Shown here one piece after another: positions 1 to 30,314 of a stretch of 30,658 nucleotides of DNA. The notes under the pieces were generated by a model. That model did not search any database. It saw nothing but the letters and a program-made list of their open reading frames with translations, and had not been told where the DNA came from. Positions within the stretch are counted from its first letter, which is position 1. Each line of letters begins with the position of its first letter. The stretch lies in NCBI GenBank assembly GCA_022360335.1, contig JAKSCZ010000327.1, positions 1 through 30,658 on the forward strand, written 5' to 3'. This stretch comes from Pseudomonadota bacterium. Lineage in GTDB: Bacteria; Pseudomonadota; Gammaproteobacteria; Steroidobacterales; Woeseiaceae. Made by a program: the position numbers and the translations under genes.

Positions 1-165
1 CATTTCCAGCAGGCCGTCGGCGGCCGCCGGTCGGTCGATGCCGGCGGGCCAGGCGCGCGATACGGTCCAACCGGCCGTGCGTCGGCGGTACGTGAATCGG
101 TAGTGGTCGAGTTCGGCGATGCGACGCTGTACTCGTACGTCGATCGCGTCGGGTTTCATCTGCAT
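1..165 (-). CDS. 5' part of a gene running off the left edge; possibly GH38 alpha-mannosidase N-terminus
   Basis: ATG at 165 opens a frame with no stop to base 1 (MQMKPDAIDVRVQRRIAELDHYRFTYRRRTAGW...). It starts 27 bp after the ABC ATPase stop on the same strand. The RRIAELDHYRF segment recalls N-termini of bacterial GH38 alpha-mannosidases from memory, but only 55 aa are visible and no catalytic domain is in the window. Confidence 0.4.
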   Translation of the reverse strand, partial: MQMKPDAIDVRVQRRIAELDHYRFTYRRRTAGWTVSRAWPAGIDRPAAADGLLEM

Positions 166-192
166 AGCGGCTGAGTTCTCTCGTCTGGGTGA

Positions 193-1329
<1,137 letters not shown>

Positions 1330-1363
1330 GAGTTCCCCCTGCGATGCATCGCTTCAGCCCGTC

Positions 1364-1423
1364 ATCTTAAGCGGCGGCGACGGCGTGTCGTTCGCATTCG
1401 CGCGGGAGAGGATTTTGAACATT
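1364..1423 (-). promoter_or_regulatory. Candidate AraC-activated promoter for the ATPase operon: 38-bp motif copy 1 (1386-1423) plus -10 TAAGAT (1364-1369)
   Basis: The minus strand reads AATGTTCAAAAT-CCTCTCCC-GCGC-GAATGCGAACGACA, then 16 nt, then TAAGAT. It matches the copy at 2387-2424 at 31/38 positions. Confidence 0.6.
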
Positions 1424-2386
1424 TCAGGGCCCGGGCACGCCCTTGCCGGCCCGAAACTCGCGCGGCGTGACCCCCACGTACTTGCGAAACACGGTCGCGA
1501 AATACTGGCTCGTCGAGAAGCCCAGGCTGTGGGCGACCGCGGTAATCGACCGGTCCGGCTCCACCAGCAGGACCCTGGCTTGCTCGATGCGACGGCGCGT
1601 CCGGTACTCGGACGGCGTCATGCCGACCTCCTGCAGAAAACGCCGATGGAACGCGCTGATACTGAGCCCGGCCCGGCGCGCGACCATCGGCACGTCGAAC
1701 GAGCGGGCCAGGTTGAGATTGATCCAGTCCAGCGCCGCATCGATCTCGGGCGACGGGCGGCGATGCGCTTCGACCGGGCGCCTCGATTGCGCGTGCCGGC
1801 TGCTGCAACGCAGCACCTCGAGCAACAGGCGGTGCAGCACGGTGCGGGCATCGAGGAGGCCGAGGCGTTCCGGCGGGTCGCCGTCGCGGGTGCCGTGCAG
1901 TGCCAGCAAGCGCTCGAACAGCCGGCCGATTGCGCCGTTGCCGGGAAACACCGGGTTGTCGATGTTCGCGAACGCCGCCGCCAGCGACGCCGTCTCCTGT
2001 CGCGTCGTGCCGGGCAGCGGCTTGCCGCCGGCCGGGACGATCAGTTCGAGATAGAACCGCTGACACGGTTCCTTGACGTCGTCCTGGCCGCCGTGGACCT
2101 GTCCGGGCAGGGTGACGAAAACGTCGCCGCGACGCACCTCGAAACTCCGGTCGTCGACGCGCCATGACACCTGCCCGTGCACGAAATAGCTGATTTCGAT
2201 GCCCTCGTCGTGCTGGTGGGTCCGCATCCCGCCGCTCTCGGCGCGGTCCGGGCTCTCCCAGCCGATGCCGACGTGAGGATAGAGCAGGCAAGCCTTGAAC
2301 CAGTAGACCCTGCGTTGCGGCTCCTCGATGCGGATCCTGTCGGGCAGTTCGACGTGCACGAAGGCATGGTCGGCGGCGCGGCGCAT
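1424..2386 (-). CDS. AraC-family transcriptional regulator with N-terminal cupin sensing domain
   Basis: Cupin motifs HQHDEGIEISY and GDVFVTLPGQVHG. C-terminal double HTH (VPMVARRAGLSISAFHRRF; SITAVAHSLGFSTSQYFATVFRKYVGVTPREFR). ATG at 2386 preferred over the TTG at 2395 used by the ORF track. Confidence 0.93.
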   Translation of the reverse strand: MRRAADHAFVHVELPDRIRIEEPQRRVYWFKACLLYPHVGIGWESPDRAESGGMRTHQHDEGIEISYFVHGQVSWRVDDRSFEVRRGDVFVTLPGQVHGGQDDVKEPCQRFYLELIVPAGGKPLPGTTRQETASLAAAFANIDNPVFPGNGAIGRLFERLLALHGTRDGDPPERLGLLDARTVLHRLLLEVLRCSSRHAQSRRPVEAHRRPSPEIDAALDWINLNLARSFDVPMVARRAGLSISAFHRRFLQEVGMTPSEYRTRRRIEQARVLLVEPDRSITAVAHSLGFSTSQYFATVFRKYVGVTPREFRAGKGVPGP

Positions 2387-2448
2387 AATGTTCAAAATAC
2401 TATCCCATTTGAATACGAACGACAGGTCGAATCGGAGCCGCCTACTGT
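2387..2448 (+). promoter_or_regulatory. Candidate AraC-activated promoter for the SBP-permease operon: 38-bp motif copy 2 (2387-2424) plus -10 TACTGT (2443-2448)
   Basis: The plus strand reads AATGTTCAAAAT-ACTATCCC-ATTT-GAATACGAACGACA, then 18 nt, then TACTGT; TATATT at 2448-2453 is an alternative -10. The region is an AT-rich island in a GC-rich background. Confidence 0.6.
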
Positions 2449-2457
2449 ATATTCAGG

Positions 2458-4911
2458 ATGATGTCGACGCGGTCCTCATGGTTCAGTCGCGCACGCAGCT
2501 TGCGAAGGCACCTGCAACGCCTGGCCGTGCTGGCGGCAGCGGCCGTTCTGTGGACGTCGCCGCCGGCAGGCGCCGAGGTGATCCGCAACGCCGGTTACGA
2601 CGGCGAACGGACGGTGATCCGCTGGACCTTCTGGGGCGGCGAACGGACGGTGCGCACCTATCGCGAGGTCGCTGCCCGTTTCGTGGCACGGCATCCCGAC
2701 ATCGCGGTCGACGTCGTCATTCTCCCGTGGGGACAATACTGGACGAAGCTGCAAACGCAGGCCGCATCGGGACTCGCCCCCGACGTCATCTCCCTGGTCA
2801 GCGCGTCGGCCGGTGTCTGGATCAATCACGGGGCGCTGCTGCCGCTCGACGATTTCGTGGCCCGGTCCGGGCTCGACCTGACGCAATACTACCGGGGCGC
2901 CGTCGACAGCATGCGCTGGTCCGGCAGACAGTACGCGCTGCCGATCGAGGTCGCGGCCGGCGCGGTGGTCTACTCGATCGACCGACTCGAAGAGCTGGGC
3001 ATCCCGCAGGAGGAATGGCCTCCGGCGGACCGGCCGATGAACTGGCGCGACTTCAAGGCCCTGGCCCGCCAACTGACCTTGCGCGACGAGCGCGGCAACG
3101 TCGTGCAGTACGGCATCGGCAGCGGCGGCTGGTGGAGCGACATCCTGTTCGGCCTGTACGGCGGTACCTTCGTCGACCGGCGCGTGAATCCGACACGGCC
3201 CGACATCGCCGGCGACGAGGCGCTGGTCAGGGCCTTGATCGAGGTGTTCCAGCTCATGCACGCCGAGCGCGTGCAGGCGCCTGCGTCGGTGTTCCAGACC
3301 TCGGATTACTCCGGCGATCAGGTACTCCGGTCGAATCAGTTCGCGATGGCGTATCACGGTCCCTATGTCCTCGAGACGCTCCGCGAGAACGGCGTGCGCG
3401 TCGGCATAACGCCCATCCCGGCCGGCGACGTGCCCATTCAGTCGGTGAGCGTGAATGCCGTCGGCATCTACCGGGATTCGGAACACCCGGACGAGGCCTG
3501 GGAGTTCGTGCGCTTCCTCGCCTCGCCCGACGCGCAGGCGGTGATCACGAACACGCTGCGCAGCGTACCCGTCAGCCGGCTCGCCGAAGGCGCGTTCATC
3601 GACAACGCGTACGGCATAGAAGGCGTCGAGGCGTTTCTTTACGATATCGAGCGCGCGCGGCCGTTCCTCGCGCCGGCCGCGACCTACGTCGAGCGGGCGT
3701 ACCTGACCTGGCTCGAGCGCCTGGACTTCGCGCTCGATTACGAATACGAGCGACGCCTGCGGGCGATGCAGGCGCGTCACGATGTGATCGACGATGCGAC
3801 CTATACGGCGTTCGTCGACGAAATGCGCGGCGTGGTGGAGCGGAGGATCAGAAGCGAGTTGCCGGTCCTGGAGGCCGACCTGCTGTCCGGATTCGCCCGC
3901 ATGCAGCGGCAGGACGGATCGGCGGGCAGCAGAGTGCTCATGCCGATACTGCTCGTGTCGCTGTTCGGCGCGGCGTTTCTCCTGTACCTGCGCTACGTGC
4001 GGCGCCAGGAGGGGAGTACCCGGGCCATGGCGTCGGCGGCGACGAACCTGGCCGCCTTCGTGTGCCTGTCGCCGTGGCTGTTCGGCTTCGCGTTCTTCAC
4101 CCTCGGCCCGATCGTCGCATCGGTGTACCTGTCGTTCACCGAATGGAACATGATCTCGGAGCCGGTGTGGGTCGGTGCCCGGCATTATCGCGACCTGTTC
4201 AGCGACAAGTATTTCCTGATCGGCCTCGAGCGCACGGTCCGCTACGCCGCATTCGTCATCCCGATCTCGCTGTTCGGCGGCATTGCGACGGCCGGCCTCC
4301 TGACCAGCAACGTCAGGGGCGCCGATTCGTTCAAGGCGATCTTCTATTTCCCGTCGCTGTTCACCGGCGCGGCGGCGGCCGTGCTGTGGGTCAACATGTT
4401 TCACAAGGAGTACGGGATCGTCAACCGGATCCTGTCGACGTTCGGCGTGCTGCCCATCAACTGGCTCGACGAGTATCACGCCTTCTATACGGTCGTTCTG
4501 ATGAACGTGTTCTGGATCGGTGGAGCGACGATCATCTACTACGCCGGGATGAAGCAGATACCCCGCACCCTGTACGAAGCGGCCGAGATCGACGGCGCCG
4601 GGACCGTGCGGCGGTTCTTCAGCATCACGCTGCCGATGCTGTCGCCCGTTATCCTGTTCATGGTAATCATGACTACGATCGGTGCGTTCCAGGTCTTTAC
4701 GCCCGCCCTGTTTTTCGTCGACAACCCGTCGCAGGTGGGCGGACCGGGCGACTCCCTGCGATTCTATGCGGTCAATATCTACGACGAGGCCTTCAACAAC
4801 CTGCACATGGGCAAGGCCTGCGCCTGGGCGTTCGTGCTCTTCGTCATCATCTTCGCCGTGACGATGATCCAGATAAAACTGTCCAAGCGATTCGTCTATA
4901 CGGAAACCTGA
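2458..4911 (+). CDS. Fused carbohydrate ABC transporter solute-binding protein (family 1) and MalF-like permease
   Basis: N-terminal signal peptide ending near A-G-A, followed by an SBP_bac_1-like domain (WTFWGG, YWTKLQTQAASGLAPDVI, AVGIYRDSEHPDEAWEFVRFLASPDAQ). Then a helical linker, one extra TM (VLMPILLVSLFGAAFLLYL), and a CUT1 permease with SPWLFGF/YLSFTEW and EAA motif LYEAAEIDGAG...FFSITLPMLSP. Start at 2458 or 2461. Confidence 0.9.
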   Translation: MMSTRSSWFSRARSLRRHLQRLAVLAAAAVLWTSPPAGAEVIRNAGYDGERTVIRWTFWGGERTVRTYREVAARFVARHPDIAVDVVILPWGQYWTKLQTQAASGLAPDVISLVSASAGVWINHGALLPLDDFVARSGLDLTQYYRGAVDSMRWSGRQYALPIEVAAGAVVYSIDRLEELGIPQEEWPPADRPMNWRDFKALARQLTLRDERGNVVQYGIGSGGWWSDILFGLYGGTFVDRRVNPTRPDIAGDEALVRALIEVFQLMHAERVQAPASVFQTSDYSGDQVLRSNQFAMAYHGPYVLETLRENGVRVGITPIPAGDVPIQSVSVNAVGIYRDSEHPDEAWEFVRFLASPDAQAVITNTLRSVPVSRLAEGAFIDNAYGIEGVEAFLYDIERARPFLAPAATYVERAYLTWLERLDFALDYEYERRLRAMQARHDVIDDATYTAFVDEMRGVVERRIRSELPVLEADLLSGFARMQRQDGSAGSRVLMPILLVSLFGAAFLLYLRYVRRQEGSTRAMASAATNLAAFVCLSPWLFGFAFFTLGPIVASVYLSFTEWNMISEPVWVGARHYRDLFSDKYFLIGLERTVRYAAFVIPISLFGGIATAGLLTSNVRGADSFKAIFYFPSLFTGAAAAVLWVNMFHKEYGIVNRILSTFGVLPINWLDEYHAFYTVVLMNVFWIGGATIIYYAGMKQIPRTLYEAAEIDGAGTVRRFFSITLPMLSPVILFMVIMTTIGAFQVFTPALFFVDNPSQVGGPGDSLRFYAVNIYDEAFNNLHMGKACAWAFVLFVIIFAVTMIQIKLSKRFVYTET

Positions 4912-4914
4912 CCG

Positions 4915-6180
4915 ATGCAGCAGGCCGCCTCCAAGAAAGCAATCCTGTACGCGATGTTGTTCGGCGTGTCGGTGTTCCTGCTGTTCCCGTTCTACTGGGT
5001 ACTGATCTCGTCGGTCAAGACGGTCGACGGACTGTCCATGAATCCGCCGATGCTCTATCCGAGCGAGTTCCGCAACGTCGACCGTGAGCTCCCGGCGGCA
5101 GGGCGGATCGTCGAGGCGGGGGGTGACTCGTGGTTTCGTCTTGCGCGCTCGCCGGATCTCGGCGCGGAGCGCGCCGGCGCCGGAGAGCCCGGCGCATACT
5201 ACGTTCGTCTGAACGAGGATGCGCCGTCGCAGCTGACGCGATGGTGGTCCGACACCGCCGTGTCGCGGCTGTCTCCGGCGGCGGCGAGGATCACCTTCGC
5301 CGGCTCGGAGGTCGTCGCGCTGGAGACCGACGGGCGGCGGGTTGCCGTCGTCTCGCGGATGATCCGGCAGAGCGACAGCGGATTCGACGAGCTGCTGTTC
5401 GTCGTGCCGCCGGACGGCGAGGCCACGGAAATCGAGATTCTGAGCAACGTCGACTACAGCAGGGTCACGCGCTGGAAGACGCGTTTCGAGAACTACCCGG
5501 AGACCCTGCGCGGGCCCGAGGCGTCGTTCGGCGAAGAGTCTACGGGCTTTCTCAAGTTCTCGCGCAACAGCTTCTTCATCGGCGTCATGGCCGTCGTCGG
5601 GCAGCTCCTGTCCAGCAGCCTGGTTGCGTTTGCGTTCGCACGACTCAAATTCAGGGGACGCGAAGTCCTGTTCGTCCTGTTGCTCGCAACGATGATGATT
5701 CCCGGCCAGGTCACGCTGGTACCGCTGTTCTCGATCTACAAGTCCCTGGGGTGGATCGACACGTTCCTGCCGCTGATCGTTCCCCACTTCACGGCGGGTG
5801 CGTTCAACGTCTTTCTGCTGCGACAGTACATGCTGACGCTGCCCAGGGAGCTGGACGAGTCGGCGCAGATAGACGGCTGCGGTCCGCTGCGGACCTACTT
5901 TTTCGTCATCCTCCCGAACTGCGTTCCGGTGCTGATCGTCGTCGGCCTGTTCACGTTCGTCGCCACCTGGCAGGACGTTCTCGGCCCGCTGATCTACCTC
6001 GACAATCCCGAGTACCGCACGGTGACGCTGGGGCTCGAGTACTTCCGGTCTCCGTACGTCGACAACCGCCACCTGCTGATGACCGGAGCCGTGCTGGCCA
6101 TGTTGCCCGTCGCGGTGCTGTTCCTGTTCTTCCAGCGTTTCATCATTTCCGGCGTCGCGACATCCGGGATCAAGGCGTGA
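4915..6180 (+). CDS. Carbohydrate ABC transporter permease (MalG-like) with large periplasmic insertion
   Basis: FPFYWVLISSVK, ENY, NSFFI, AFAFARLKFRGR, EAA motif PRELDESAQIDGCG and ATWQDVLGPLIYL. At 421 aa it is longer than typical MalG-type proteins. Confidence 0.93.
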   Translation: MQQAASKKAILYAMLFGVSVFLLFPFYWVLISSVKTVDGLSMNPPMLYPSEFRNVDRELPAAGRIVEAGGDSWFRLARSPDLGAERAGAGEPGAYYVRLNEDAPSQLTRWWSDTAVSRLSPAAARITFAGSEVVALETDGRRVAVVSRMIRQSDSGFDELLFVVPPDGEATEIEILSNVDYSRVTRWKTRFENYPETLRGPEASFGEESTGFLKFSRNSFFIGVMAVVGQLLSSSLVAFAFARLKFRGREVLFVLLLATMMIPGQVTLVPLFSIYKSLGWIDTFLPLIVPHFTAGAFNVFLLRQYMLTLPRELDESAQIDGCGPLRTYFFVILPNCVPVLIVVGLFTFVATWQDVLGPLIYLDNPEYRTVTLGLEYFRSPYVDNRHLLMTGAVLAMLPVAVLFLFFQRFIISGVATSGIKA

Positions 6181-7103
6181 TCGCGCGGCGTACGGCCGGT
6201 CGCGTTCAGCCGATCTACGCCGGCATCGACGGCGGCGGGACACGTTGCCGCGCGTTGCTGGCAGACGCCCGGGGCGTCGAACTCGGCGCCGGCAGCGCCG
6301 GGCCGGCAAATCCGTTCCAGGATCCGCGGCAGGCGGCGGTCTCCGTCGTCGAGGCCGTCGAGGCCGCATTGAGCGACGCGGGTTGCGCGCCGTCGGAGAT
6401 CGGCAACGTCGTCGCCTGCGTCGGCCTGGCGGGCGCGAACGTCAAGTCCGCTTACGAGCGTATGGTCGATTGGGACCATCCGTTCTGCGACATGCAGCTG
6501 ACGACGGACGTCGAGATCGCCTGCCTGGGCGCTCACGGGGGCCTGGACGGCGGCGTCGTGGTAGTCGGGACCGGTTCGTCGGGCTGCGCGCTGGTCGACG
6601 GGGAATGGCATTACCTCGGGGGATACGGTTTTCCGTTTGCGGACAAGGGCAGCGGCGCATGGTTCGGGCTCGAGGCGATTCGCGCCGTATTGCTCGATTT
6701 CGACGAGCTCGGACCGCCGACGGCGCTGCGCGGCGCGCTGCGCGAGGAAACGGGCTTCGGACCGCTGGAACTCGTCGATTTCATGAGCGGCGCCAGGCCG
6801 GCGAGGTTCGCGAGTATTGCACCGCTCGTCGTCGATGCGGCCGGGAGCGGCGACGCCGTCGCCGCCGGGATACTGCAAGACGGCAGCGCGTACCTGTCGG
6901 ACCTCGTGGTGCGCCTCGTGGCTTTCGGCGCGCCGGCAGTCGCGCTGGTCGGCGGACTCAGCCGCAAGCTGCTGCCGTGGCTCGGCGAAGACGCGGCGGC
7001 TCGCGTCGTTCCCGCGCAGAAGTCGGCGGAGCACGGGGCGCTGTTGTCCGCCATGCACTCCGGTGAGGCGCAAACGAGGGAGCGGGGCGCCGGCGATTCC
7101 TGA
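6177..7103 (+). CDS. nagK: N-acetylglucosamine kinase (BadF/BadG/BcrA/BcrD ATPase family, Shewanella NagK type)
   Basis: GTG start overlaps the permease stop (GTGA). Motifs GIDGGGTRCRA, GPANP, VGLAG, TTDVEIACLGAHGGLDGGVVVVGTGS and GGYGFPFADKGSGAWFG match the gammaproteobacterial NagK pattern; nagA and nagB-II are in the same locus. Confidence 0.8.
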   Translation: MIARRTAGRVQPIYAGIDGGGTRCRALLADARGVELGAGSAGPANPFQDPRQAAVSVVEAVEAALSDAGCAPSEIGNVVACVGLAGANVKSAYERMVDWDHPFCDMQLTTDVEIACLGAHGGLDGGVVVVGTGSSGCALVDGEWHYLGGYGFPFADKGSGAWFGLEAIRAVLLDFDELGPPTALRGALREETGFGPLELVDFMSGARPARFASIAPLVVDAAGSGDAVAAGILQDGSAYLSDLVVRLVAFGAPAVALVGGLSRKLLPWLGEDAAARVVPAQKSAEHGALLSAMHSGEAQTRERGAGDS

Positions 7104-7198
7104 CGGCCCGGTACGGCGGATGCCCGCGCCCGGAGCGCGACAGCAAGGGTCGCGTAGGGCATTATTCCGGGACCCGGCACGCTTCCCGCAGTACGACG

Positions 7199-8194
7199 AT
7201 GTCCAATATCCGCGAGGTTTCACAACTGGCAGGCGTTTCCACGGCGACCGTATCGCGGGCGTTGCGCAACCCGGAACTCGTCTCGAAAGAAAGCCGGCGC
7301 AAGGTCATGGAAGCCGTCGAACGGCTGAACTATCGGCCGAACATGCTGGCGCGGAATTTCCGCTCCGAGCGGTCGTATTCGCTCGTCATCCTCACCCCGA
7401 GCATTGCGAGTCCGTTCTATTCGCGAGTCATACGGGGCGTGGAGCTGGCGGCGCAGAATCGCGGTTACTCGGTCCTGCTCGGCGATACGCGCGATTCCCT
7501 GCGGCGGGAAGACGAGTACATCGAGTTGGTGGAGACCCGTCTCGCGGACGGCATCATCCAGTTCCGGCCCAGCGAGTCGAACTCGCGGATAGCGCGCCGG
7601 ACCAACTTCCCGATCGTGTACGCCTGCGGTTGCGCGGACACGGCATTGCCGTCCGTGCGCATCGACAACATCGAGGCGGCGCGCGCCGTCGTGAACTATT
7701 TCCTGTCGCTGGGACACCGGCGTATCGCCGTCATCTGCGGGCCGCCGGAGAATCCGCATTCCATCGACCGGCTGGCCGGCTACCGCCGGGCGCTGCAGGA
7801 TGCGGATATTGCCGAGGATCCCGATCTGATCGTCCACGCCGACGATTACTCGATGCAGTCGGGCGTCAAGGCCGGAACCCGTATTGCCGAGCTGCACGAC
7901 AGTCCGACCGCGTTGTTCTGCATGAACGACGAAATTGCCATCGGCGCGATTCAGAGCATCAAGCGCGCCGGAATCTCGGTTCCGGGCGACATGTCGGTGG
8001 CGGGCTTCGACAACATCGACTTCGCGCGTCACTACGATCCGCCGCTGACGACCATCGACCAGCCGTCGGACGAGATCGGCCAGATGGCCTGCAACATGCT
8101 GATCGACCAGATCGAGGAGCGCGGCGTGTCGCAGAACAACGTGATCCTCGACTACGATCTCATCGTCCGGGCGAGTACCGGTCCGGCCCCCTAG
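7199..8194 (+). CDS. LacI-family transcriptional regulator
   Basis: N-terminal HTH NIREVSQLAGVSTATVSRAL, hinge YRPNMLARNF, GHRRIAVICG, ALFCMNDEIAIG, VPGDMSVAGFDN, PPLTTIDQP, and C-terminal LIVRAST. Confidence 0.97.
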   Translation: MSNIREVSQLAGVSTATVSRALRNPELVSKESRRKVMEAVERLNYRPNMLARNFRSERSYSLVILTPSIASPFYSRVIRGVELAAQNRGYSVLLGDTRDSLRREDEYIELVETRLADGIIQFRPSESNSRIARRTNFPIVYACGCADTALPSVRIDNIEAARAVVNYFLSLGHRRIAVICGPPENPHSIDRLAGYRRALQDADIAEDPDLIVHADDYSMQSGVKAGTRIAELHDSPTALFCMNDEIAIGAIQSIKRAGISVPGDMSVAGFDNIDFARHYDPPLTTIDQPSDEIGQMACNMLIDQIEERGVSQNNVILDYDLIVRASTGPAP

Positions 8195-8247
8195 TCGGGC
8201 AGACGGGACACCGGGCCCTGCCGGCAGGCGCCGGCATGAAACAGTGG

Positions 8248-8261
8248 TGTAACCGGTTACA
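8248..8261. promoter_or_regulatory. LacI-type operator upstream of the beta-mannosidase
   Basis: Perfect 14-bp palindrome TGTAACCGGTTACA fitting the LacI-family TGnAAnCGnTTnCA pattern. An extended -10-like TGcTAGGAT lies at 8266-8274. An identical core recurs at 10949-10962. Confidence 0.8.
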
Positions 8262-8343
8262 TCCCTGCTAGGATGCCCGCACGAAAAAGAACACGAAAGG
8301 GGGTGGAATCCCGCTGCGGCGCGCGCGGGTTCCCGGATTCGAT

Positions 8344-10935: not shown

Positions 10936-10965
10936 TGGACTTCCCGAATGTAACCGGTTACATTC
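10936..10965 (+). promoter_or_regulatory. Sigma70-like promoter of the TBDR operon overlapped by a LacI-type operator
   Basis: TGGACT (10936-10941), 17 nt, then TACATT (10959-10964). The perfect 20-bp palindrome GAATGTAACCGGTTACATTC (10946-10965) covers the spacer and -10. Confidence 0.8.
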
Positions 10966-27890: not shown

Positions 27891-29327
27891 CTAGACGATC
27901 GCCATGCTGTGCGAGACGTTCTTGACGATCATGTAGTTGTGCAGCCCCTCGGTCCCGCCCTCACGGCCGTAGCCGCTCGACTTGACGCCGCCGAACGGCG
28001 TCTCGGGCAGGGACGCCTCGAGCGTATTGATCGACACGTTGCCGGCCTCGATGCCTTCGATCATGCGGTCCGCGTAGTCGGCCCGGTTGGTGAAGCCGTA
28101 CGCGGCGAGCCCGTAGGGCACCGAGTTCGCTCTCTCGATACCTTCGTCGAGCGATGCGACGGGGTTGACGATCGCGAGCGGCCCGAACGGTTCGACCTGC
28201 ATTACGCGTGCATCGTCCGGGACGTTCGCCATGACGGTGGGCTCGAAGAAGTAGCCGGCGTCGCCCATCCGCTTGCCCCCGGTCAGTATCTCGGCGCCTT
28301 TTGCGCGCGCGTCCTCGACGAGATCCGTCAGTGCGCCGACGCGGCGGTCGTGCGCGAGCGGCCCCATCTCGACGTCGGGATCCACGCCGTTGCCGACGAC
28401 GGTCGCGGCCGCGCGGCGCACGAAGATCCCGGTGTACTTCTCGAAGACGTCCTCATGCACGAAGAACCGCGTCGGCGAGGTACAGACCTGCCCGGCGTTG
28501 CGCATCTTTCTGACGGCGCCGCTGACCGCCGCGGCCTCGACGTCGGTGTCCTCGCACACGATGACCGGTGCGTGGCCGCCCAGTTCCATCAGCACCGGCG
28601 TCATGTGCCGCGCCGCGAGCGTCGTGAGATGCCGGCCGACGACCGTCGAGCCCGTGAACGCAACGAGGCGCACCGGGTCCTGCCCGATCAGATGCTCCGA
28701 AATGTCGGCGGGCGTGCCGAACACGAGGTTCAACACCCCGGGCGGGAGACCGGCGTCCTGTAACGCCCTGGCAATGTGCAATGCACCGGCAGGGGTTTCC
28801 TCGGCCGCCTTGAGGACGATCGAGCAGCCCGCGGCGAGCGCGCCGGCGACTTTGCGACACGGTTGGCTCAGAGGGAAGTTCCAGGGCGAGAACGCCGCAA
28901 CCGTGCCGATCGGCTGGTGGTGCACGACGTAGCGGATGCCCGGTGCGCTCGGGATGACGCGACCGTAGGTGCGCGTCGCCTCGCCCGCGTCCCATTCGAA
29001 GAACTCGCAGCCGCGGATCACCTCCAGCCGCGCCTGCGCCAGCGGCTTGCCGTGTTCCGCCGTGATCGCCGCAGCGATTTCCTCCCGGCGCTCGCGCATC
29101 AGCGCCGCGGCCCGGTACAGGACGTTCGCCCGGTCGACCGGCGCCGTATTGCGCCAGACGTCGAATCCCTTCGCCGCCGCGTCGAGCGCATCGTCGAGGT
29201 CGCCCCGTTCCGCGTGCGGCAGCCGGCCGATCTCTTCCTCGGTTGCCGGGTTCAGGACCGGCAGGTCGCTCGCCGTCTTGCGCCACTCGCCGCCGATGAA
29301 GAGGCGTAGATCCGGATAGGTGCTCAT
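27891..29327 (-). CDS. NAD-dependent aldehyde dehydrogenase, succinate-semialdehyde / alpha-ketoglutarate-semialdehyde dehydrogenase-like
   Basis: ATG 29327 (MSTYPDLRLFIGGEW). FSPWNFP, KAAEETP, FTGSTVVG, catalytic ELGGHAP and RNAGQVCTSP, EPFGP and PFGGVKSSGYGREGG. Confidence 0.93.
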   Translation of the reverse strand: MSTYPDLRLFIGGEWRKTASDLPVLNPATEEEIGRLPHAERGDLDDALDAAAKGFDVWRNTAPVDRANVLYRAAALMRERREEIAAAITAEHGKPLAQARLEVIRGCEFFEWDAGEATRTYGRVIPSAPGIRYVVHHQPIGTVAAFSPWNFPLSQPCRKVAGALAAGCSIVLKAAEETPAGALHIARALQDAGLPPGVLNLVFGTPADISEHLIGQDPVRLVAFTGSTVVGRHLTTLAARHMTPVLMELGGHAPVIVCEDTDVEAAAVSGAVRKMRNAGQVCTSPTRFFVHEDVFEKYTGIFVRRAAATVVGNGVDPDVEMGPLAHDRRVGALTDLVEDARAKGAEILTGGKRMGDAGYFFEPTVMANVPDDARVMQVEPFGPLAIVNPVASLDEGIERANSVPYGLAAYGFTNRADYADRMIEGIEAGNVSINTLEASLPETPFGGVKSSGYGREGGTEGLHNYMIVKNVSHSMAIV

Positions 29328-29354
29328 GAAACCGATTATAAGTATATTTCGGCT
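29328..29354. promoter_or_regulatory. Bidirectional leaderless-type promoter
   Basis: 27-bp AT-rich gap. Minus strand: TATAAT (29340-29335), 7 nt, ATG. Plus strand: TATATT (29343-29348), 6 nt, ATG. No room for an SD on either side. Confidence 0.65.
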
Positions 29355-30314
29355 ATGGCCGGCAAATACTCGAAACTCGACGCCAAGGACTACGCCCGCG
29401 AGAACATGCGCGGCATCTGGGCGGCCGCGCTGAACCCGTTCGACGACGATCTGTCGCTGAACGAGAGCGGTCTGCGTTCGAATATCCGTCACTGGATCGA
29501 CGACCTCGGCATCGAGGGGCTGTTCATCGCCGGCAAACAGGGCGAGTTCTTCTCGATGAGCCTCGACGAGCGCAAGCGCAATTTCGAGATCGCCGTCGAG
29601 GAATGCGACGGCAAGGCGGGGGTCATCGTGTCGGTGTCGGACCAGAACTTCGACACGGTCGGGGAACTCGCCGCTCACGCCGAAGACTGCGGGGCCGACT
29701 ACATCGTGGTTCACGCACCGGTACTGAGTTTCGTGCACGACCGCGGCGAAGTCCTGTATCGGTACTACGAGGCGCTCTGCGACCGTCTCGACATCGGCAT
29801 CGCGATGTGGAGCCACCCGGACTCGGGCTACCTGATGCAACCCGGGGAGTGCGCGCGCATCGCCGAGCTACCGAACGTCGTCGCGATCAAGTACTCGGTG
29901 CCGCGCGAGATGTACGTGCGGCTGACGCACATGGTCGGCGACAGAATCCAGGTGTCGACGTCGGCCGAAGACGACTGGCTCGACAACATCGAGGAACTGG
30001 GCTGGCGGCTGTATCTCTGCTCCTCGCCGCCGTACCACCTGCAGACGAGCAGCGACAGGCGCATGAACGAATACACGCGCCTGGCGTTCGACGGCAGGTT
30101 CGACGAGGCGCGTCGCGTGCGCGACAGCCTGGACCCGGTGCGCGACGCCATGGCGCGCACGCGGCCGGCCGACAAGCCGCAGGCTTTCGGCAAGTACTGG
30201 CAGGAGCTGCTCGGGCAGGTGGGCGGCCGGGTACGACCGCCCATGCTCGAGTTGACCGACGCAGAGAAGGCCGCGATTCGCGAGGCCTTCGAGAACTGCG
30301 GCCTCAGAACATGA
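29355..30314 (+). CDS. Dihydrodipicolinate synthase (DapA/NAL) superfamily protein with atypical active site
   Basis: AAALNPFDDDLSLNESG, GxxGE as AGKQGEFFSMSLDERK, GADYIVVHAP, PNVVAIKYS (Schiff-base Lys) and VGGRVRPPM. Confidence 0.88.
   Translation: MAGKYSKLDAKDYARENMRGIWAAALNPFDDDLSLNESGLRSNIRHWIDDLGIEGLFIAGKQGEFFSMSLDERKRNFEIAVEECDGKAGVIVSVSDQNFDTVGELAAHAEDCGADYIVVHAPVLSFVHDRGEVLYRYYEALCDRLDIGIAMWSHPDSGYLMQPGECARIAELPNVVAIKYSVPREMYVRLTHMVGDRIQVSTSAEDDWLDNIEELGWRLYLCSSPPYHLQTSSDRRMNEYTRLAFDGRFDEARRVRDSLDPVRDAMARTRPADKPQAFGKYWQELLGQVGGRVRPPMLELTDAEKAAIREAFENCGLRT

Follow-up and report, generated by a model that had tools for sequence, protein, structure and literature searches.

In the araBAD system of Escherichia coli, the site bound by AraC shares 4 bp with the −35 element of the promoter, and AraC restricts its own production by means of a site on the promoter of its gene (PMC11983282). 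Both AraC autoregulation and the partial overlap of AraC and RhaS sites with −35 elements are established (PMC11983282). RhaS and RhaR, which act at rhaBAD and rhaSR, use inverted half-sites overlapping the −35 element, and the half-sites of RhaS are 17–18 bp long and 14–16 bp apart, which gives about 50 bp in total (PMC11983282). Here we describe a gene for an AraC-family regulator (araC below) and two inverted copies of a 38-nucleotide (nt) element that flank it, in a 30,658-nt stretch of DNA from an uncultured marine bacterium of the Woeseiaceae (assembly GCA_022360335.1, contig JAKSCZ010000327.1); this whole stretch is called the window. We consider it likely, with a probability of roughly 80%, that the two copies are operators of the regulator encoded between them. 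As a kind of system this is textbook, and divergent activation combined with self-repression is no new principle. What appears to be new is the motif, its link to an uncharacterised and widespread AraC subfamily, the predicted use of one element for both activation and self-repression, and the predicted leaderless regulator gene.

Like E. coli AraC, the regulator combines a cupin sensor with a dual helix-turn-helix domain and is divergent from a sugar operon, and it is predicted to limit itself via an operator on its own promoter. As at araBAD, an activator site of about 38 bp extends into the −35 region, in the geometry of araI1-araI2. Unlike in the E. coli system, activation and self-repression here appear to depend on one and the same element, of which a second full copy, about 1 kb away on the far side of the regulator gene, would serve a co-directional operon. 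The locus also differs from its E. coli counterpart in that the half-sites form no evident direct repeats of the araI kind, araC appears from its sequence to have neither leader nor ribosome-binding site, and the analysis identified neither a CRP site nor a lone half-site of the O2 type. A weak dyad, GTTC...GAAC, would fit the inverted arrangement of RhaS sites more closely than the direct repeats of AraC; unlike those sites of about 50 bp, however, the whole element is 38 bp long, and the regulator scores far below the RhaS and RhaR cut-offs.

The domain content of the regulator identifies it as a bona fide member of the AraC/XylS family. Pfam searches gave 87 bits for HTH_18 (cut-off 33.6) and 64 bits for HTH_AraC at residues 235–313, while AraC_binding (41.4 bits, cut-off 21.1) and Cupin_2 (29.6 bits) indicated an N-terminal cupin-type ligand-binding domain; the matches in PDB were to the DNA-binding domains of AraC, XylR, and MarA. 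No NCBIfam equivalog among AraC, RhaS, RhaR, MelR, and XylS-like was reached, the best being AraC with 79.7 bits against a cut-off of 208, and neither this regulator nor the motif was described in the literature searched. The protein was absent at E≤1e-30 from 60 related genomes, 36 of them of the same genus, and for this reason the loci used for comparison were homologues found elsewhere, in a Woeseiaceae metagenome-assembled genome (MAG) and in metagenome contigs.

A sequence-only reading of the window had proposed that araC is framed exactly by inverted 38-nt copies which share a perfect 12-bp match, and the same coordinates and count were recovered here. The segments 1386–1423 and 2387–2424 are inverted copies identical at 31 of 38 positions, which is the top 38-nt inverted match between positions 1000 and 2900 and exceeds chance, as 100 first-order shuffles of this region gave at most 29 (mean 26.2, standard deviation 1.1). 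A repeat search lengthened the pair to 1381–1423 and 2387–2429 (43 nt, 79%). The exact 12-mer AATGTTCAAAAT occurs in both arms and nowhere else in the window, against 0.02 occurrences expected by chance. The left arm directly adjoins the araC stop codon (TCA, 1424–1426) and the right arm adjoins its start codon (CAT, 2384–2386); hence the framing is exact in the window, but its abutment to the stop codon is not conserved in relatives. The features of this region are given below.

1364–1369, minus strand: TAAGAT, −10-like hexamer for the ATPase and GH38, separated by 16 nt from the left copy
1386–1423, minus strand: predicted left operator copy, read toward the ATPase promoter, with distal block ATGTTCAAAAT and proximal block CGAACGACA
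1424–2386, minus strand: gene for the AraC-family regulator, 320 aa, cupin sensor and dual helix-turn-helix (Pfam)
2387–2424, plus strand: predicted right operator copy, read toward the promoter of the substrate-binding protein (SBP)-permease gene; its minus strand carries araC promoter-like elements
2394–2402, minus strand: araC −10-like region, in which TAGTAT (2402–2397, 10 nt before the ATG) overlaps TATTTT (2399–2394, 7 nt before the ATG)
2419–2424, plus strand: outward −35-like hexamer ACGACA of the right promoter, from the sequence
2420–2425, minus strand: araC −35-like hexamer CTGTCG, 17 nt upstream of TAGTAT
2443–2448, plus strand: TACTGT, −10-like hexamer for the SBP-permease gene, separated by 18 nt from the right copy

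When read outward, both arms terminate in the −35-like sequence ACGACA, which is followed after 16 nt by TAAGAT on the left and after 18 nt by TACTGT on the right, all as had been claimed. Given this spacing, the element spans about −30 to −67, and the GACA of its proximal block forms the 3′ part of the −35 hexamer, with GAAC immediately upstream. A site that reaches the −35 of a weak promoter was found in this way at both promoters and also in relatives, where the element ends 16–18 nt before a TAnnnT hexamer. No terminator was predicted between araC and the ATPase gene on its left, and because of this, read-through from araC may feed the left operon and provide its basal level of expression.

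The element was kept in eight orthologous loci, in which AraC is 48–73% identical to that of the window (68% in the Woeseiaceae MAG locus L004, and 48–73% in metagenome contigs P0002–P0008). The gene order ATPase(-GH38)/araC/SBP-permease was the same in L004, L084, L085, L086, and L092, and partly so in L089 and L091, and both copies of the element were present in these five loci as well as in the latter two, whose AraC is 49–50% identical. In a four-way alignment of the window with L084, L004, and L086 (AraC 67–73% identical), 34 of the 38 positions of the right arm and 26 of the 38 of the left arm were invariant, compared to 54% of the whole araC gene and 31% of its third-codon positions; the best 38-nt stretch within araC had 33 invariant positions. 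This pattern is the signature expected of selection on noncoding regulatory DNA, and suggests strong purifying selection at both promoters. The −10-like hexamers followed the element at conserved distances. On the left the hexamer, with the same 16-nt spacing, was TATGAT in L004, L085, L086, and L092 and TAAGAT in L084, while on the right TACTGT was identical in L004, L084, L085, L086, and L092, and L091 had TAGTTT at the equivalent spacing. Overall, the hexamer 16–18 nt after the element in these loci was TAAGAT, TATGAT, TACTGT, TAGTTT, TACTTT, or TATTTT.

The position of the element relative to araC was more variable. Measured from the araC stop codon, the left element lies at +1 in the window and L084, at +7 in L004, at +37 in L089, at −26 in L086 and L092, and at −41 in L091; in the last three loci it is located inside the coding end of araC (L086:3961–3998, L092:2596–2633, and L091:3255–3292). 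There the predicted binding site of the regulator also codes for its last residues (for example ...NVQNPPPR), and this DNA would be under coding and regulatory constraint alike. In L089 some 250 nt separate the right element from the araC ATG, and the genes that it faces are different ones, small open reading frames (ORFs) and an ABC exporter. The comparison of loci in which the position of araC differs had been suggested as a check, and it showed that in L089, L086, L092, and L091 the element stays at promoters and not at gene ends. Since the position varies in relatives, the exact framing of araC in the window is best seen as a by-product of tight gene packing.

The anatomy of the element was derived from a position weight matrix (PWM) built from 13 instances, each oriented toward its target promoter. 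The conserved parts are a distal block at positions 2–15, ATGTTCAAAAT.CT, a C-rich patch at positions 18–20, GAA at positions 25–27, and a proximal block at positions 30–38, CGAACGACA; the predicted operator motif is ATGTTCAAAAT-N19-GAACGACA. The sole internal symmetry is a weak dyad, GTTCnnAnT/AnTnnGAAC, which is centred on position 19 and uses the most conserved columns. Two other readings of parts of the element were dropped: as an extracytoplasmic function (ECF) sigma factor promoter with GAAC as its −35, and as a LexA box at CTGTATAT. In both cases the relatives, inspected by eye, were without a conserved partner motif at the required spacing.

A genome-wide motif scan had also been proposed, and in the PWM scan of the whole 2.9-Mb genome only the two arms scored above 12 bits, without a third site. 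Similarly, a pattern search of the 4.1-Mb Woeseiaceae MAG found only the two homologous sites. A look-alike on contig C318, which came up in a scan with the distal block only, corresponds to the opening codons of a 393-aa ORF and was set aside as a coding coincidence.

The association of the element with more distant regulators was analysed in 80 loci picked solely because they encode AraC homologues (29–68% identity), using a loose pattern in which ATGTTCAAAAT with up to two mismatches is followed 29 nt on by GAACG with up to one mismatch (ATGTTCAAAAT-N19-GAACG). There were 17 matches, compared to three in reversed-sequence controls, and 15 of the 17 were located at an araC border, either upstream of the start or downstream of the stop, all facing outward. 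Most of the matches in distant loci had a TAnnnT hexamer 17 nt further on. The loose element was found at the borders of AraC homologues only 27–43% identical, from Planctomycetota and from other phyla, with unrelated target genes alongside, and in the Planctomycetota contig L073 (AraC 31% identical) both arms surround araC. The neighbouring target genes encode PhyH-family dioxygenases in L006, L007, L008, L017, L034, and L087, URO-D-like proteins in L026, L061, and L068, and DUF1861 in L023. When metagenome contigs were instead scanned for the motif itself (20 specified bases, exact), eight loci were obtained. An AraC homologue 27–31% identical lies beside the site in L097, L098, L099, and L101, and L096 is a duplicate of L099; the three loci without an AraC homologue are about the number expected by chance for a pattern of that size. 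Because the adjoining target genes differ, these data argue that the motif travels with the regulator and not with the cargo, and its retention while the protein diverged to about 30% identity suggests an operator recognised by this protein family.

Among these distant loci, a phytanoyl-CoA dioxygenase family (PhyH) gene was repeatedly divergent from a motif-bearing araC (L006, L007, L008, L017, and L034, from Planctomycetota and relatives), a conserved pairing of regulator and enzyme. In L087, at 530–615 (the same DNA is present in L088), the full element faces a PhyH-family dioxygenase gene beside an AraC homologue 48% identical, and the distal block by itself is present once more at a distance of 42 nt (four helical turns) in the upstream direction. 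Another AraC-family gene lies downstream in convergent orientation, at L087:1779–2663.

The right arm also contains sequences which could serve the transcription of araC itself. On the araC strand it reads CTGTCG, 17 nt, TAGTAT, 10 nt, ATG, or alternatively TATTTT, 7 nt, ATG; in this way the arm covers the −35-like and −10-like elements of araC and ends at its ATG, and the same overlap was found in seven distant loci. The two −35-like hexamers, CTGTCG of araC and the outward ACGACA, overlap on opposite strands within 2419–2425. The hexamer TATTTT, 7 nt before the ATG at 2386, which had been named as the araC −10, is indeed present, but TAGTAT, which has CTGTCG at a 17-nt distance, may replace or join it. 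Neither a Shine-Dalgarno sequence nor another purine-rich ribosome-binding site precedes this ATG (GAACATT was inspected). In L007, L008, L011, L012, L034, L060, and L066 the first in-frame ATG comes directly after TA[GA]nAT and 7 nt, and in the Planctomycetota loci L007, L008, and L011 TTGTCG lies 17 nt upstream of TA[GA]nAT. The Woeseiaceae-type loci have three additional bases (ATT) before the ATG, and because of these the araC leader in them would be 0–3 nt long. A −10 located 6–10 nt before the start, with no Shine-Dalgarno sequence, is the arrangement of leaderless genes, and its presence in the sequence suggests that araC is near-leaderless and self-repressed. A similar arrangement recurs at 29325–29357 of the window, where divergent start codons about 27 nt apart each have a −10-like hexamer at leaderless spacing (TATAAT and 7 nt on the minus strand, TATATT and 6 nt on the plus strand); because of this recurrence, leaderless-type starts seem to be used in this organism.

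The anatomy of the element, its conservation, and its association with AraC homologues are observed directly; that this protein binds the copies, whether it activates or represses, where transcription starts, and which effector it senses are inferred. The geometry of the sites points to activation, to a class II contact, and to autorepression. In the mechanism that we propose, each copy would act directly upstream of a weak sigma-70-type promoter facing away from araC, with its proximal block CGAACGACA covering the −35 and a TAnnnT hexamer 16–18 nt later. Once bound to its sugar, which is probably a mannoside or an oligosaccharide of the Man-GlcNAc type, the regulator would bring RNA polymerase to both promoters, so that the two halves of the ABC importer would be switched on together, the ATPase and GH38 on the left and the binding-protein/permease genes on the right. 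Since the right operator covers the −35, the −10, and the start of araC, the bound regulator should block araC while it activates the divergent promoter; blocking of the leaderless or nearly leaderless araC transcript would result in negative autoregulation. The proposal that the copies are AraC sites which co-regulate a physically split ABC transporter is supported by their conservation, by the fixed spacing to the −10, by the presence of two copies per genome, and by the association with AraC homologues. The regulator appears to coordinate separated importer halves and GH38 in an N-glycan/mannoside locus, and the motif and promoter map could describe an AraC subfamily spread across several phyla, which would be useful for regulon reconstruction in metagenome-assembled genomes and might offer a compact inducible promoter/regulator pair.

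Several observations weigh against the assignment of the copies as operators of this regulator. A consensus promoter scan called no sigma-70 promoter here, and each candidate has 8 of 12 consensus positions; a sub-threshold score is what is expected of activator-dependent promoters, yet it is not positive evidence. There are no clean araI-like 17-bp direct repeats, as a comparison of the half-sites at an offset of 20–21 bp gave 3–4 matches in 14 (3 of 14 at 21 bp) in a hand count of PWM columns. The invariance of GAACGACA, the last eight bases, is partly a matter of ascertainment, as that word was the search query; a search anchored on the distal block alone recovered the same sites, with proximal variants such as GAACGCCA and GAACGAAA. 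Among the distant homologues, the identity of the DNA-binding domain was 0.44 both with and without the strict motif. Finally, because the proximal block and TAGTAT can be read as the −35 and −10 of araC, the cross-phylum conservation upstream of araC could partly be that of a promoter and not of an operator.

If this last point is taken to its end, the right arm could be a compact bidirectional promoter, with a shared −35, a −10, and a leaderless araC start, and the left arm its partly decayed duplicate, with no specific regulator involved. Such a promoter would account for the sequence CTGTCG-17-TAGTAT-10-ATG on the araC strand, for TTGTCG-17-TA[GA]nAT-7-ATG in the Planctomycetota homologues, and for an outward ACGACA exactly at the −35 position. 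We nevertheless regard it as improbable, as conservation extends beyond the hexamers to TTTGAAC, between the −10 and the ATG, and to CGAAC, beside the −35, which are kept in both arms in close loci and, with variants, across phyla. Moreover, the position of the −10 is taken in left arms by GAGGAT or GAGAAT, and any promoter facing inward from them would do no more than run antisense into araC, while the distal block is as conserved in left arms as in right ones. In L026, L045, and L073, copies lie downstream of araC, where there is no araC start for them to serve. The arms could alternatively be real operators of another factor, such as a global carbon regulator or the LacI encoded at 7199–8194. 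The presence of a lacI gene in the same window is consistent with this, and the motif is tied to this AraC through sequence association, but it recurs at the borders of AraC homologues from different phyla whose gene neighbourhoods are unrelated, which makes the explanation distinctly improbable. Two sites per genome are also unlike the sites of a global regulator, and the lacI gene has exact CG-centred palindromes of its own, at 8248 and 10949.

Together with the operator proposal, a mobile origin had been raised, in which araC would be the cargo of a relic cassette and the arms its terminal inverted repeats, like those of Tn402/Tn5053; ends like those of a miniature inverted-repeat transposable element (MITE) were considered here as well. 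Such an origin draws on the outer ends TGTCGTT...AACGACA, of which only the first seven bases, TGTCGTT, resemble Tn402/Tn5053 ends, and on the occurrence of araC and its flanking copies in different neighbourhoods. None of the defining features examined (copy number, target duplication, transposition genes, and a fixed relation to the cargo) fits a mobile cassette, and we consider this origin extremely unlikely. There are only two copies in each of the genomes searched, the 2.9-Mb genome and the 4.1-Mb Woeseiaceae MAG, and the 5-bp flanks outside the arms, CGGCG and GGTCG, do not form a direct duplication, as the sequence-only reading had already remarked. No transposition domain was detected by Pfam in the window ORFs scanned, and plasmid similarity was limited to a 66-nt stretch coding for the helix-turn-helix. 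The relation to the cargo is not fixed either, as the left arm lies within the araC coding sequence in three loci and 37 nt away from it in L089, while the −10 hexamers, which are outside the repeats, keep their spacing. The retention of the repeats at about 30% protein identity points to selection on the repeats themselves.

With the two copies read as operators of the regulator, a further step can be envisaged, which we put forward as a tentative and rather doubtful idea. The 38-nt element could be a portable, self-contained control module, one strand of which would hold the full promoter of a leaderless, self-repressed regulator, while the other would hold an activator site together with the −35 of a target operon. 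Such a module would be conserved from Planctomycetota to Gammaproteobacteria, and would have been copied beyond the regulator gene when a second operon was recruited. In the absence of inducer, one regulator dimer could then pair both copies and loop out the approximately 1-kb araC, as a long-range version of the araO2-araI1 loop.

The target operons on both sides of araC encode the parts of a sugar importer and a glycoside hydrolase (GH).

193–1329, minus strand: MalK/UgpC-type ATP-binding cassette (ABC) ATPase, first gene of the left target operon (Pfam ABC_tran, OB_MalK, TOBE_2)
1–165, minus strand: start of a GH38 alpha-mannosidase truncated by the contig end, second gene of the left operon (tblastn)
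2458–6180, plus strand: right target operon, with an SBP-permease fusion (2458–4911) and a second permease (4915–6180) (Pfam)

The ATPase was assigned to the UgpC subfamily of NCBIfam with 493 bits. A tblastn search with the GH38 of L085 against positions 165–1 of the window aligned 55 residues at 73% identity; these are the first 55 codons of the gene, which lie directly after the ATPase. GH38 is the next gene after the ATPase in L085, L089, and L091 as well, while in L086 the two are separated by a 361-aa gene that belongs to no known family; the left promoter probably drives an ATPase-GH38 operon. The 3′ end of an ATPase gene and a GH38 78% identical to that of L085 are also present on the 2.5-kb contig C75 of the same assembly, which may represent a strain variant or a paralogue in the bin. 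On the right, SBP_bac_1 and BPD_transp_1 are encoded on one ORF (2458–4911) and BPD_transp_1 on the next, and the SBP-permease/permease pair is also divergent from araC in L084, L085, and L086. The N-terminal region of the SBP-permease gene contains a tandem 36-nt direct repeat (2577–2648, 72% identical), which results in a duplicated 12-residue stretch directly after the signal peptide.

The remainder of the window encodes a LacI regulator, a GH2 beta-mannosidase, a TonB-dependent receptor, an FG-GAP/ASPIC protein, a GH85 endo-beta-N-acetylglucosaminidase, SIS-domain and NagA-like enzymes, and a sodium:solute symporter. This gene set matches what would be expected for the use of N-glycans or mannosides. 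The ABC importer would plausibly take up oligomannose-GlcNAc products, with GH38 trimming them intracellularly, and because the gene set fits such use, the effector of AraC is probably a mannoside. The genes for N-glycan uptake and degradation in Streptococcus pneumoniae, among them those for a GH85 endoglycosidase, an ABC importer, GH38, and other mannosidases, are reported to be controlled by the two-component system TCS07 (PMC7075642, PMC9603416). The window and its relatives share with them GH85, GH2 beta-mannosidase, GH38, a CUT1-type ABC importer, and amino-sugar catabolism, but, unlike in S. pneumoniae, the regulator here is of the AraC type, with paired predicted operators.

Between the second permease and the lacI gene lies a 273-aa ORF (6245–7066) without a Pfam match, and a minus-strand ORF that overlaps it (5994–7223) had no Pfam match either. 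No known RNA families were found in positions 1–8300. The exact palindrome TGTAACCGGTTACA occurs twice in the window, at 8248–8261 and 10949–10962, where 0.01 would be expected by chance. One copy adjoins the GH2 beta-mannosidase gene and the other lies over the annotated start of the TonB-dependent receptor ORF. These palindromes are probably operators of LacI (7199–8194), and would form a second regulon, separate from that of AraC, in the same sugar locus.

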